A stretch of 64,000 nt of DNA from an uncultured Actinomycetes bacterium (GCA_963755025.1 CAVWIH010000030.1:87490-151489); one strand, 5' to 3'. Counted from the stretch's first letter, positions 21,966 to 26,943 are shown. Translations and numbers: made by a program. Notes: generated from the sequence alone by a model not told the origin.

Positions 21966-23132
21966 ATGGTCCACAGCGACACGGCTAAGGGCATCCGCAT
22001 TGCGCAGTCGTGCGCGTCCGACCCGCGCGCCGCGGTCAAGGAGTTCCACGCCCAGGTCGCGCAGCCCGACATGGCGCTCGTCATCTTCTTCTGCTCCGAC
22101 GAGTACGACCGCGCCATCCTCGCCCGCGAGATGAGCCGCCGCTTCGCCGGCGTGCAGGTCGTGGGCTGCACGACCGCCGGCGAGATCGGCCCCAACGGCT
22201 GCCGCGACCACAGCATCGCCGGCGTGAGCCTCGCCGCGAGCGTCTGCACGGCCACCAGCGGCGTCGTCGAGCACCTGCAGCAGTTCGAGTTAGACGAAGG
22301 CCGCCTGGTCGCCCACGAGCTGCTCTACCGGCTCGAGGACAGCGCGCCCGGCGCCGACCGCCGCAACAGCTTCGCCTTTTTGCTCATCGACGGCCTCTCC
22401 GTGCGCGAGGAGCTCGTGGCGCACGCGCTCCAGGACGCGCTGGGCGAGATCCCGGTCGTGGGCGGCTCCGCCGGCAACGGCCTCAGCTTCGCCAACACCT
22501 ACATCTACTCCGAGAAGCGCTTTTACGCCGACAGCGCCGCCCTGATCGTGGTGAGCACGCCGCTGCCGATACGCACGTTCAAGACGCAGCACTTCCTGCC
22601 CACCGACGAGCGCCTCGTGGTCACCGAGGCCGACCCCGTGCAGCGCATCGTGCGCGAGATCAACGGCCTGCCGGCCGCCGGCGAGTACGCCCGCACGCTG
22701 GGCGTGGCGGCGGGCGACCTCGGTCCGCTGCACTTCGCGTCGTCGCCGGTCGTCGTGCTGATCGACGGCGACTACTACGTGCGCTCCATCCAGAAGGTCA
22801 ACCCCGACGGCAGCCTCACCTTCTTCTGCGCCATCGAGGCCGGCGTCGTGCTGCGCGTGGCCAAGGGCGTCGACCTCATCGCCAACCTGGAAGACGCGCT
22901 GGCGCAGCTGCGCGAGCAGATCGGCCCGCTGCAGCTCGTGCTCACCTGCGACTGCATATTGCGCAAGCTCGAGATCGTCGAGAGCGGCCTGACCGACCGC
23001 GTCGGCGACATCCTGCGGGCCAACAACGCGGTCGGCTTCAACACCTACGGCGAGCAGTTCTGCGGCGTGCACGTCAACCAGACGCTGACCGGGGTCGCCC
23101 TGGGCTCCGGCGCAGCGGACCACGGTGCCTGA
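21966..23132 (+). CDS. nosP: FIST-N/FIST-C domain sensor, NosP-like
   Basis: FFCSDEYD, VVGCTTAGEIG, LLIDGLSVREE, GGSAG, REINGLPAA, YYVRSIQ, LTFFCAIEAG, CDCILR, GFNTYGEQ..HVNQT. Intact, 388 aa. Confidence 0.88.
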   Translation: MVHSDTAKGIRIAQSCASDPRAAVKEFHAQVAQPDMALVIFFCSDEYDRAILAREMSRRFAGVQVVGCTTAGEIGPNGCRDHSIAGVSLAASVCTATSGVVEHLQQFELDEGRLVAHELLYRLEDSAPGADRRNSFAFLLIDGLSVREELVAHALQDALGEIPVVGGSAGNGLSFANTYIYSEKRFYADSAALIVVSTPLPIRTFKTQHFLPTDERLVVTEADPVQRIVREINGLPAAGEYARTLGVAAGDLGPLHFASSPVVVLIDGDYYVRSIQKVNPDGSLTFFCAIEAGVVLRVAKGVDLIANLEDALAQLREQIGPLQLVLTCDCILRKLEIVESGLTDRVGDILRANNAVGFNTYGEQFCGVHVNQTLTGVALGSGAADHGA

Positions 23133-24715
23133 AGCGCGGCGGCCGGGCGCCGGCGACGCCGCGCGGTCCGGCGACGCCGCGCGGCCTGGCGATTGTACGG
23201 CCCGGCCGGGGAGCGCCGCGCGGCCGGGCGCCGGCGAGGTGGCCGCCCTGCAGGCGGAGATCGTGCGCCTCAACAAGGTCGTGCAGGCGCTCATGGACCG
23301 CGCCGAGGCGGCGACCAGCACGCAGGGCTCGGGCTACGGCCTGTTCCAGACCACCGTGCTGCTGCAAAAGCAGGTCCGCCTGCGCACGCAAGAGGCCGAG
23401 GCCGCCCTGCGCGACAACGAGCGGGCCTCCAGCAGCCTCGCCGGCCTCGGCCTCGAGAGACATGCACGCCCTGCGCCGTACGGCCGCCCTGCAGATCCAG
23501 CTGCTCGAGCTGCTCGTGCAGCAGAAGGACCTGGGCGAGCTGATCGACCGCGTGGCCACGCTGCTCGACATGCCGATCGTGCTCTTCGACGCCCACGGCC
23601 GCACCCTGCACAGCTCGCGCGGCGCCGACTCGCCGGGCCTGGCGCGCCGGCTGTGGTCGGCCTACGCCGCGCGGCGCGGCCCGTCGGCCCCGCTGGGCCG
23701 GGCCGACGGCGGCGGCGGCGAGCGCCTCTACTACCACGACATCCTGGTGATGGACCGCGTCGAGCGCGTGCTGGCGGCCGTGGCCCCGGCCCGCCAGGCG
23801 CCCGAGTTCGCCGACGCCTCGCTCGCCTTTTTGCAGCAGCTCGTCACGCTCGACGTGCTGCGCCGCCGCGACGAGCTCGCCATGGACCGCCGCGAACGCC
23901 GCCACCTGCTGGGCGAGGTGCTGGCCGGCGACGGCACGCCCGACGAGCTGCGGGCGCGCCTGGCCGACCAGGGCTTCGACCACGACAGCGTCTGGCGCGT
24001 CGTGGTCGTCGAGCTGCGCGCCGCGCCGGCCCCGCCCGAGGGCGCGCCCAGCGCGCGGGCCGCCAAGCGCCTGGCCGACAGGCTGCTGCGCGCCGTCGAC
24101 GACGCCCTGAGCCGGCGCCACGCGCCGTTTCTGAGCATGCCCATGGGCTCGTTCGCCGTGGTGCTCGCGACGCTGCCCGACGGCCGGCCCGAGACGGCCG
24201 CCGCGCTGCTCGCCGACCTGCGCGACGCGACCGCCAAAGCGGTCGCGCCCGAGCAGGTCGTGGTCGGCTGCTCGACGCCGCTCTCCGGCGCCGGCGGCGC
24301 GCCGCGCGGCCTGCAGCAGGCGCACGCCGCCTGCATCGCGGCGCGCCACGACCCCGCCGCCGGCGGCGTCGTGCTGTTCGACGGCTTGAGCGGTCAGTTC
24401 CGGCTGCTCGACGGGCTCGACGAGGAGACCCTGGCCGACATCGTCGAGCGCACCTTCGCGCCGCTGCTGGGCTACGACGCCCAGCACCGCACGCGGCTCT
24501 TCGAGACCCTCGAGACGCTGTTCGAGCACCGCCTCGCCGTGCAGGAGACCGCCGACCTGCTGCACGTGCACCGCAACACGCTGCAGAAGCGCCTGGCGCA
24601 CGTCGAGCAGCTCCTCGGCGTCGACCTGAGCGACCTCGACGACATCGTCGACATACGGCTCGGCCTGCACGCCGCCGAGCTGCTCGGCAAGCGCCCCTCC
24701 GCGGCCACCGAGTAG
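23125..24715 (+). CDS. PucR/CdaR-family transcriptional regulator with an N-terminal NosP-partner-type coiled coil; one indel near 23445
   Basis: N-term EIVRLNKVVQALMDRAE..GYGLFQTTVLLQKQVRLRT; then DLGELIDRVATLLDMPIVLFD, VVGCS, and C-terminal HTH TADLLHVHRNTLQKRL. Overlaps the nosP stop by 8 nt. Confidence 0.8.
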
Positions 24716-24960
24716 CGGCCGCGCGCGCCGTCGCGGCAGCGACGGCGCCGACTCGCGGCCGCGACGGCGCCGCGCCTGCGACTGCGGTCGCTCGCGCGCA
24801 CGGCCCGCGCCCGCGCCGCCCGCAGGTGTGCGCGCGCCCACCTCACGCCTGAGGAGTGGTCGCGCGGCGACTCGAATACGCCGTCTGTCGGCGTCATCGT
24901 TCGGTGTACCTCGCCAAGGCGACAGCTCGCCGCCGCAACCACATCTTCGAGGAGGCATCG

Positions 24961-26495
24961 ATGGGTAAGGTCTACGCACCACCCGGGACCCCGGGCAGCG
25001 TCGTCACGCTCAAAGCCCGCTACGACAACTTCATCGGCGGCAAGTGGGTGGCGCCGGTCAAGGGTCAGTACATGCCCAACCTGAGCCCGGTCACCGGCAA
25101 GCAGTTCTGCGAGGTCGCCAAGTCGACGGCCGACGACGTCGAGCTCGCCCTCGACGCCGCCCACGCCGCCAAAGACGCCTGGGGCGAGACCTCGCTGGCC
25201 GAGCGCGCCGCGGTGCTCAACGCGCATCGCCGACGCCCTCGAGGCCAACCTCGAGATGCTGGCCGTGGCCGAGACCTGGGAGAACGGCAAGCCGGTGCGC
25301 GAGACGCTCGCCGCCGACATCCCCCTGGCCATCGACCACTTCCGCTACTTCGCCGGCGCCACGCGCTCGCTCGAAGGCAGGACCGACCGAGATCGACAAG
25401 GACACGGTCGCCTACCACTTCCACGAGCCGCTCGGCGTGGTCGGCCAGATCATCCCGTTCAACTTCCCGCTGCTGATGGCCGCCTGGAAGATCGCTCCGG
25501 CCCTGGCCGCCGGCAACTGCACCGTGCTCAAGCCGGCCTCGCCCACGCCGTGGTCGATCCTCAAGCTGGCCGAGGTCATCGCCGACGTCGTGCCGGCCGG
25601 GCGTGATCAACATCATCACCGGCCCCGGCGGCGAGATCGGCAAGGCGCTGGCCACCAGCCCGCGCATCGCCAAGATCGGCTTCACCGGCGAGACCACGAC
25701 CGGCCGGCTGATCATGCAGTACGCCGCCCAGAACCTCATCCCGTCGACCACCGAGCTCGGCGGCAAGTCGCCCAACATCTTCTTCGCCGACGTCATGGAC
25801 GAAGACGACAGCTTCCTCGACAAGGCGATCGAGGGCCTCGTGCTCTACGCCTTCAACAAGGGCGAGGTCTGCACGTGCCCGTCGCGCGCGCTCATCCAGG
25901 AGTCGATCTACGACAAGTTCATGGCGCGCTGCCTCGAGCGCATCGGCAAGATCCGCCAGGGCAACCCGCTCGACACCGACGACCATGATCGGCCCGCAGG
26001 TCTCGACCCAGCAGATCGAGAAGATCGCCTCCTACGTCGACATCGGCCTGCAGGAAGGCGCCGAGTGCCTCATCGGCGGCCACCGCGCCGAGCAGCGCCG
26101 GCGAGTTCGCCGACGGCTACTACTTCGAGCCCACCGTGCTCAAGGGCGACAACAAGATGCGCGTCTTCCAGGAGGAGATCTTCGGTCCGGTGCTCGCCGT
26201 GACCACCTTCAAAGACGAGGCCGACGCGGTGCGCGATCGCCAACGACACCCTCTACGGCCTGGGCGCCGGCGTGTGGACGCGCAACGGCAACCGCGCCTA
26301 CCGCATGGGCCGCGGCCATCAAGGCCGGCCGCGTGTGGACCAACTGCTACCACCTCTACCCCGCCGGCGCGGCCTTCGGCGGCTACAAGATCTCCGGCGT
26401 CGGGTCGCGAGAACCACCAGATGATGCTCGAGCACTACACGCAGACCAAGAACCTGCTGGTCAGCTACAGCGACCAGCCGCTCGGCTTCTTTTGA
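24961..26495 (+). CDS. aldB: NAD-dependent aldehyde dehydrogenase (AldB/ExaC-like), frameshifted
   Basis: [67 protein letters not shown]-term PLGFF. Confidence 0.92.
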
Positions 26496-26596
26496 GAGAC
26501 GCCTGCAAGGGCATCTTGGGAGTTGAAGGCTGAGAACTGACGGCTGCGGGCTGAGAGAAGCCCGCAGCAGGCTCGCAGCACGTAAGGAGCACGGAC

Positions 26597-26943
26597 ATGA
26601 GCGAACCGGTCCCCGTTCCCGCCGTGGTGGCCACGCCCGAGGCCCTGGCCGCGGTGGCCCGCCTCGTCGCCGAACGGGGGCCGGTCATGTTCTTCCAGTC
26701 GGGAGGCTGCTGCGACGGCAGCCTCCCGATGTGCTTCGACGACGGCGAGTTCCTGATCGGCGACCACGACGTGCTGCTGGGCACGCTGGGCGGCGCCCCT
26801 TCTACATCGACCCCCGCCAGTACGAGGTCTGGAAGCACACCCAGCTCATCCTCGACGTCGGCGAGGGCGCGCCCGAGGGCTTCTCGCTGGCCGCCGGCCC
26901 CGACACGCACTTCATCACGCGCTCGCGCATGTGCATGCCGTAG
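26597..26943 (+). CDS. DUF779 family protein, frameshifted
   Basis: GPVMFFQSGGCCDGSLPMC, QYEVWKHTQLILDV..GFSL; the usual downstream partner of AldB. Confidence 0.9.

Follow-up and report, generated by a model that had tools for sequence, protein, structure and literature searches.

A candidate kinase-free switch from a NosP-type FIST sensor to a PucR-family regulator ahead of aldehyde dehydrogenase genes in an uncultured Actinomycetes bacterium

In the literature searched, NosP signalling has been linked to histidine kinases and enzymes of cyclic di-GMP (c-di-GMP) metabolism only, and the way in which the sensor engages its partners is left undefined there. The locus described here raises the question of whether a sensor of this kind can also be wired directly to a transcription factor. 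It occupies positions 21,966 to 26,943 of a 64,000-nucleotide stretch of DNA (hereafter the window) from an uncultured Actinomycetes bacterium (GCA_963755025.1 CAVWIH010000030.1:87490-151489), where a nosP-like gene of the FIST family overlaps the gene for a PucR-type regulator and is followed on the same strand by genes of aldehyde oxidation. A first-pass annotation of this DNA had proposed that a NosP-docking segment was grafted there onto a DNA-binding protein. Our comparative analysis points to a kinase-free switch from NosP to transcription that would control aldehyde oxidation, a reading to which we assign a probability of roughly 0.7. New here are a NosP pair with a transcription factor as its output and the delineation of the docking module on the partner side.

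A NosP-like sensor and its PucR-type neighbour

The nosP-like gene (21966-23132, plus strand, as are all genes of the system) is a single intact open reading frame (ORF) for a single-domain FIST protein of 388 amino acids, in which Pfam recognises FIST N at residues 38-234 (2e-44), FIST_C at residues 237-365 (9e-25) and no other domain. The protein covers the NosP equivalog model NF041558 of NCBIfam in full (positions 1-368) and reaches its cut-off of 450 bits with 451 bits, in agreement with its earlier description as NosP-like. FIST proteins of different phyla share 49-66% identity and many invariant residues (alignment A2), and a search of the PDB sequences with the FIST profile returned no solved relative. 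The window comes from a metagenome-assembled genome (MAG) of 3.37 Mb, with a completeness of 84% and a GC content of 72-78%, which holds a single FIST match and a single copy of the module described below; its nearest named relatives, in a module-based scan with one genome per species, are uncultured Thermoleophilia/Actinomycetota MAGs.

The regulator gene starts with GTG at 23125, 8 nucleotides (nt) ahead of the FIST stop, so that the regulator start codon and the nosP stop codon lie together in an 8-nt stretch (GTGCCTGA, 23125-23132); that the two genes overlap had been noticed in the first-pass annotation. The same type of overlap, RTGNNNTGA, recurs in several phyla, at 30 of 42 FIST-partner loci; the nearest start lies at most 11 nt from the stop in 11 of the remaining 12, and no start was found there at one locus (L013). 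Judged from the sequence, the overlap probably couples translation of nosP to that of the regulator.

The regulator (23125-24715) comprises about 530 codons if one extra base is ignored. As assembled, it reads in frame 1 through EIVRLNKVVQALMDRAE ... ALRDNE and then, from about 320 nt into the gene, in frame 2 as far as its stop codon at 24715. Fused homologues of 502-547 amino acids (P0001-P0007, P0006 being known from the search table alone) carry the N-terminal module and the PucR body in one protein, and in the six of them that were fetched (all except P0006) the junction is spanned by ...SSSLAASASRDMH... or a close variant. Of the body's 120 homologues, 111 have the module in the same protein, with a median start at residue 13; the other nine, at 303-444 amino acids, fall short of the length of those that have it (about 470-547). 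Module and body form a single gene.

The body of the regulator contains a GGDEF-like non-catalytic domain (PF17853, 23927-24331; Pfam 2.2e-11, residues 156-290 of the translated segment 23462-24715) and the C-terminal helix-turn-helix (HTH) of PucR proteins (HTH_30, PF13556, 24497-24673; Pfam 5.3e-18, residues 346-404 of the same segment, model positions 1-59 of 59). The source annotations of its homologues read "sugar diacid utilization regulator" or "PucR family". The N-terminal effector-binding domain PF07905 / Diacid_rec gave no Pfam match in the regulator at E<=0.01, and no kinase domain was found with Pfam either in the body encoded in the window or in full-length orthologues. Sensing appears to have been handed over to a separate protein. 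The orthologue from L012, one of the two closest genomic relatives, was folded with 107 homologues (mean predicted local distance difference test score, pLDDT, of 84.7), and the resulting model is arranged as two module helices (residues 15-43 and 51-77), a long helix (83-111), a small alpha/beta domain (116-200), another long helix (205-246), the GGDEF-like domain and the HTH. A Foldseek search related this fold to the C-terminal fragment of Rv2242 (9f80, residues 161-414, E 3.8e-9) and to BAD_0249 (3onq, E 2e-6).

The segment that carries the argument is the putative NosP-docking module at 23245-23421, a helix-loop-helix of about 60-65 residues (ALQAEIVRLNK...QGS.F.LFQT...RT.ELEAAL..NE) delineated by alignments A1 and A3 and by the NahK/ErcS' model. 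It is preceded by a variable N-terminal tail rich in Pro, Gly, Ala and Asp (23140-23244), a repeat region in which the window and its relatives L011 and L012 differ from one another by indels of 66 and 54 nt (three-way alignment) and which is conserved neither in A1 nor in A3. The module itself has a mean column identity of 65-67% across phyla (A1, A3); in A3 the value is 65% among Actinomycetota, Proteobacteria, Spirochaetia and Bacteroidota, the non-helical loop QGS.F.LFQT included. Pfam assigned no family to the N-terminal piece at E<=0.01, and the sole match in the NCBIfam scan of the module was the NahK/ErcS' model NF041831 (positions 7-66, E 1.2e-6). Searches with the module alone retrieved PucR-type proteins, PAS-GGDEF cyclases and HisKA-HATPase kinases at 54-68% identity (54-67% in A1), and the modules of the regulator, the kinase partners and the cyclase partners are homologous. 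The earlier suggestion that NosP partners begin with a similar coiled coil holds as far as the similarity is concerned; "coiled coil" is a loose term for what the models render as a helix-loop-helix hairpin. The position of the module before the first PAS domain fits the published domain map of PA1976, in which PAS1 starts at residue 97 (PMC8694187), and about 130 residues at the N-terminus of the kinase that NosP binds have been reported to hold "no recognized sensory domain" (PMC12570481, 2025). A second NCBIfam model, NF041832 ("near_NosP_CTERM"), describes the C-terminal part of NahK/ErcS kinases encoded near NosP and was seen on L048.

A profile built from nine module segments and run on 1.84 billion cluster representatives revealed 1058 representatives at E<=1e-3, 385 of them at E<=1e-10, and in nearly all of the best 150 of the 1058 the match lay at about residues 10-85. 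The Pfam scan of the 88 representatives of at least 250 amino acids among these best 150 gave 38 proteins with GGDEF domains (some with EAL, one with a C-terminal hemerythrin), 31 with kinase domains (some of them hybrid, with REC and Hpt), four fusions of FIST and module, one PucR protein, one SpoIIE/PP2C phosphatase, ten proteins with PAS or GAF only (mostly fragments), one ACR_tran protein and two without a family. In the four fusions (P0119, P0121, P0122 and P0145) FIST N and FIST_C stand directly ahead of the module, which is followed by GGDEF or kinase domains. The module heads the SpoIIE/PP2C phosphatase P0020 and the PAS-GGDEF protein with C-terminal hemerythrin P0027.

The genomic neighbourhood of the module points in the same direction. 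A module-only scan, again with one genome per species, yielded 47 loci from Actinomycetota, several proteobacterial orders, Spirochaetia, Bacteroidota and Nitrospiraceae, with 24 kinases, 15 GGDEF-type proteins, six PucR proteins and two proteins without a family as the outputs of the module genes. An upstream same-strand ORF could be scanned at 44 of these loci, the other three having none listed, and at 42 of the 44 the ORF directly upstream of the module gene encodes FIST N and FIST_C, in three cases partially (contig edge or frameshift). The module is nearly always encoded directly after a FIST gene.

The complex of the FIST protein with a 72-residue module was modelled from an alignment of 39 rows for each, together with three controls. 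The score was 0.70 (0.74, 0.70 and 0.65 in the individual runs) against 0.00 for the best control, with a partner pLDDT of 79 or more and at least 96% of the contacts common to the runs. In calibration, the mark was attained by 116 of 157 solved complexes and by 2 of 215 mismatched pairs, counts that are only rough here because custom alignments were used. On the module side the predicted interface comprises residues 13-25 and 35-50, including the conserved loop; on the FIST side it comprises residues 149-156, 218-224, 231-235, 266-271, 288-295 and 366-369, among which 149, 156, 218-220, 234, 289, 293 and 369 are invariant columns of A2. Since no FIST relative was found among solved structures by sequence, recall of a known complex by the model is unlikely. 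The modelling that the first-pass annotation had suggested hence supports binding of the FIST protein to the module, in line with the two-hybrid assay in which NosP of Burkholderia binds its kinase (PMC12570481). A short and sharply conserved docking module common to the different partner types would offer a concrete interface to mutate.

The closest known relatives of this pair are NosP-NahK and NosP-NosK of Pseudomonas (PA1975-PA1976), Burkholderia, Legionella and Vibrio, in which NosP binds and modulates its kinase (PMC12570481). With them the locus in the window shares the stand-alone FIST N and FIST_C sensor with a NosP-level score, the partner gene immediately downstream, usually with the 8-nt overlap, and the same module at the start of the partner, matching positions 7-66 of the NahK model. 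Contrary to NahK and NosK, the partner in the window lacks HisKA, HATPase, receiver and phosphorelay domains and ends in the PucR HTH. As it has no kinase core, it is not a member of the NahK family and has the docking end alone in common with it; as it lacks kinase and receiver and ends in an HTH, its output would be direct control of transcription, with no c-di-GMP step. The cyclases and phosphodiesterases associated with NosP or FIST (module-PAS-GGDEF, in part with EAL) likewise have the same module at 54-67% identity and the same upstream FIST gene. Their GGDEF and EAL domains are catalytic, whereas PF17853 is the only GGDEF-related domain of the regulator in the window, and no second messenger would be expected from a member of that family.

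The regulator shares its GGDEF-like domain, HTH_30 and fold with PucR/CdaR regulators such as Rv2242, BAD_0249, CdaR and PucR, the genes of which also stand beside catabolic genes that they probably control. Ordinary members of this group, however, have their own ligand-sensing domain at the N-terminus, where the window regulator has the NosP-partner module. The kinase and cyclase partners are laid out in a similar way, from sensor contact through a helix to the output, and differ from the regulator in the output alone. H-NOX and its associated kinases and cyclases follow the same logic, in which a separate gas or heme sensor protein controls an adjacent signalling enzyme (PMC8846402, PMC8738867), with an unrelated sensor fold; a transcription-factor partner of this kind was not encountered in the literature searched. 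Searches of open-access full text returned no paper with both "FIST domain" and "PucR" and no system of NosP with a transcription factor, in agreement with the first-pass annotation, which knew of no described NosP-PucR system.

Aldehyde genes and a candidate operator downstream

Downstream of the regulator lie aldB (24961-26496), coding for an ExaC-type NAD-dependent (acet)aldehyde dehydrogenase, and a DUF779 gene (PF05610, 26597-26943), both on the strand of the regulator as earlier described, with frame breaks that the earlier description had missed. Three-frame reading and the list of indels show eight single-base insertions in aldB as assembled; a 126-residue piece of it scored 205.5 bits with ExaC (NF050026) as the best family, the rest being frameshifted, and the intact dehydrogenase of L012 scored 906.8 bits against the ExaC cut-off of 900. 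The DUF779 gene, which was delimited from its reading frames and the Pfam matches of its orthologues, carries a 1-nt deletion near 26796. The orthologues of L011 and L012 match the Pfam family at 1e-36 and 2e-37, respectively; the NCBIfam scan of the first 64 residues of the split copy in the window gave no match.

The search for synteny that had been called for covered 12 PucR-type loci, all of them from Thermoleophilia (the window, L011, L012, L013, L015, L018, L028 and L058-L062), and an aldehyde-oxidising enzyme is encoded downstream on the same strand in all 12. Three kinds of enzyme are represented: an ExaC-type dehydrogenase in the window, L011, L012 and L013 (partial at the contig end in the latter), followed by DUF779 in the first three; another aldehyde dehydrogenase in L059, L060 and L061, with L059 assigned by its likeness to L061; and a 4Fe-4S protein with a tungsten-type aldehyde:ferredoxin oxidoreductase in L015, L018, L028, L058 and L062. 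The operons of L058 and L062 extend to a pyridine-nucleotide-disulphide oxidoreductase (L058:6155-7438 and L062:6090-7352, the latter assigned by likeness to the former), and that of L062 alone includes a ThiS/MoaD-like protein (L062:5689-6027). This layout presumably resembles that of a three-subunit bacterial aldehyde oxidoreductase.

A shared element precedes the aldehyde genes of all 12 loci, whichever type of enzyme follows: GTGTGCRCGCG.CCAC, a spacer of 13-15 nt and AGTGGTCGCG (alignment A4). In the window it spans 24826-24875 as GTGTGCRCGCG.CCAC - N13 - AGTGGTCGCG - N3 - CGACTCGA, with the arms of an inverted repeat at 24834-24841 and 24856-24863. The terminal CGACTCGA, or a one-base variant of it, follows the element in nine of the 12 loci, and L059-L061 differ there. 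The strict form occurs once in the genome, in a search with a pattern derived from the same element. Because unrelated enzymes stand behind the same element and regulator, the element probably belongs with the regulator and not with the enzyme gene, and the inverted repeat at 24834-24863 is likely to be the binding target of the regulator. The NosP-PucR pair is found together with the cis element and an aldehyde-oxidising enzyme.

Taken as a mechanism, the stand-alone NosP-type FIST sensor would be produced in step with the PucR-family factor by way of the 8-nt gene overlap and would dock on the N-terminal helix-loop-helix module of the regulator. From there, in the Thermoleophilia form of the protein, the signal would run through the long helix, the small alpha/beta domain and the GGDEF-like domain to the HTH, and with the module placed ahead of helix, GGDEF-like domain and HTH the sensor's state would govern DNA binding directly. 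The regulator would act at the inverted repeat before the adjacent operon, here the ExaC-type dehydrogenase and DUF779. The contact between the two proteins, the binding of the regulator to the repeat and its action as an activator or a repressor are inferences. A sensor that acts on a DNA-binding protein would be a far simpler read-out of what NosP senses, with one sensor, one regulator, one operator and one operon, and, with its ligand identified, the pair could be developed into a compact biosensor chassis.

Rival readings of the locus

As assembled, the locus shows one frameshift in the regulator, eight in aldB and one in the DUF779 gene, with nosP intact. Taken at face value, these shifts would describe a decaying locus in which the regulator is split into a small helical protein and an N-terminally truncated PucR and aldB is dead; that the regulator and aldB show insertions only, nine in all, which is odd as an error profile, speaks for such a reading. 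We nevertheless regard decay as very improbable. All ten shifts are window-only against L011 and L012, which are about 91-94% identical to the window in a three-way DNA alignment; the same alignment shows no window-only frame-breaking indel in the FIST gene. The shift in the regulator is a single extra base at 23443 (GCC-G-GCC), and contigs from four public short-read runs were placed on the region as a check. Across 23443, record 18 of X2 has 309 letters for 310 window positions, with three other letters differing, and record 2 of X1 has 1068 letters for 1069 positions; these contigs are one letter shorter without fixing the exact place of the gap, and hence agree with an error without proving it. 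At each of the eight aldB insertions (25222, 25382, 25599, 25981, 26096, 26235, 26314 and 26401) the contigs omit one letter at the same place or within 1-2 nt, aldB has no window-only deletion, and its reading frames are otherwise undamaged. Other assemblies of the lineage likewise give frameshifted products (P0008, P0016). Neither L011 nor L012 has the extra base at 23443, the spanning contigs are one letter shorter and the homologues are fused; the base is hence most likely an assembly error, and the single indel that the first-pass annotation had assumed between the N-terminal segment and the PucR body is borne out.

A different objection concerns the module, which might be a generic dimerising signalling helix, its adjacency to FIST being that of an inherited operon with no direct docking of NosP. 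The segment is helical and, in the manner of signalling helices, lies ahead of PAS, DHp or GGDEF domains, and the search of PDB sequences with the module profile gave weak helical matches only, the best being 6k4e (E 0.004). Such a helix would nonetheless hardly account for a conservation that, with the QGS.F.LFQT loop included, goes far beyond that of generic coiled coils, for a module that accompanies FIST over at least five output types, for the existence of four FIST-module fusions, or for a complex model in which the loop and the two helices meet FIST residues, a number of which are invariant, with a score that none of the controls approached. We consider a generic helix improbable on these grounds, if slightly less so than decay, and prefer the docking module.

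The most substantial rival keeps the architecture of the docking reading and changes the signal: the switch, responsive to substrate or stress, would serve aldehyde detoxification and follow a cue from alcohol or aldehyde metabolism or from the cellular redox state, not nitric oxide (NO). By its family name, this NosP would be expected to respond to NO or heme, the cues named for NosP in PMC12570481, PMC8846402 and PMC13259868, with a metabolite equally open; whether the FIST ligand is NO or heme is left unsettled in PMC8846402. All 12 PucR-type loci adjoin aldehyde-oxidising enzymes of three kinds, and the dehydrogenase here is of the ExaC type. The nosP-nahK pair of Pseudomonas is PA1975-PA1976, located within the ped/exa cluster of alcohol and aldehyde oxidation together with exaC (PMC12997753), and PA1976 is ErcS', which is listed as a regulator of ethanol oxidation, its signal being given as "possible cytosolic metabolites" (PMC5812489). 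The NosP family is hence linked to aldehyde oxidation in a second, distant lineage, which makes a metabolic cue a serious rival. Against it, partner kinases are under NO- and hemin-dependent control by NosP in assays (PMC12570481; PMC8846402), and an aldehyde enzyme lies within 4 kb at only 2 of 41 non-PucR loci, so that the link is not general at that range; the notion of aldehyde genes near NosP pairs in general was rejected for the same interval. On balance we regard the metabolic cue as possible and rather doubtful. A broader and still more tentative proposal is that NosP-type FIST and the hairpin of about 60 residues form a universal plug and socket through which one sensor family could drive any output, the cue of at least part of the NosP family being tied to alcohol and aldehyde metabolism and not to NO as such; the strict pairing of the PucR form with aldehyde enzymes and the position of nosP-nahK(ercS') in its Pseudomonas cluster would tie the cue to that metabolism.

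Several observations weigh against the switch from NosP to transcription as we propose it. The whole mechanism is built on computation. Membership in the NosP family is marginal at 451 against 450 bits: among PucR-linked orthologues L012 scores 458.7 and two others fall just under the cut-off (L018 446.7, L058 439.1), while proteobacterial kinase-linked proteins score 462.3 and 453. Binding of heme or NO is not a property that can be read from the sequence, and PMC8846402 describes how FIST-FIST_C binds its ligand as little known. In the monomer model of L012 the module has a pLDDT of 61-77, which is moderate confidence, and the score of the complex is the model's own confidence with custom alignments. 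Two module genes have no upstream FIST gene, L029 being preceded by a transporter and L043 by a CBS-PAS-GGDEF protein; their sensor may be encoded elsewhere or lost. The shared element could be a promoter feature instead of the operator of the regulator, and as the 12 PucR loci are related and all belong to one class, their shared synteny does not amount to 12 independent events. In the metatranscriptome contigs of run X15, aldB-like sequence is heavily covered, the regulator barely and nosP not at all; these contigs derive from mixed organisms and allow no conclusion on expression or habitat.

Neighbouring features

The two module-bearing proteins without an upstream FIST gene are a kinase of Billgrantia (L029:3917-5110) and a PAS-GGDEF-EAL protein of Rhodocyclaceae (L043:3884-5932). 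In the window, further genes of the assembly may carry damage similar to that of aldB, and ORF-based calls need care for this reason. A CCG-domain (LutA-like) gene at 19203-19991 on the minus strand, within 17848-19991, is preceded by a long ORF with an implausibly Arg-rich N-terminal part, which may be another frameshifted gene. Divergent from nosP lies an ORF for 388 amino acids (20713-21879, minus strand) with a long stretch rich in Ala, Gly and Pro and without a Pfam or NCBIfam family; its counterpart in L012, of 398 amino acids, is likewise without a family. This ORF was considered as a part of the system and rejected, as it is not conserved beside other PucR-type pairs.

The scan of 21700-27100 for sigma-70 promoters and terminators found none, as would be expected at a GC content of 72-78%. 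Between aldB and the DUF779 gene the window carries a 28-nt insertion (26541-26568) that is absent from L011 and L012. Within it, GCTGCGGGCT and AGCCCGCAGC form a 10-bp stem without mismatch around a loop of 6 nt, and the insertion could be a small repeat element or an intergenic hairpin.

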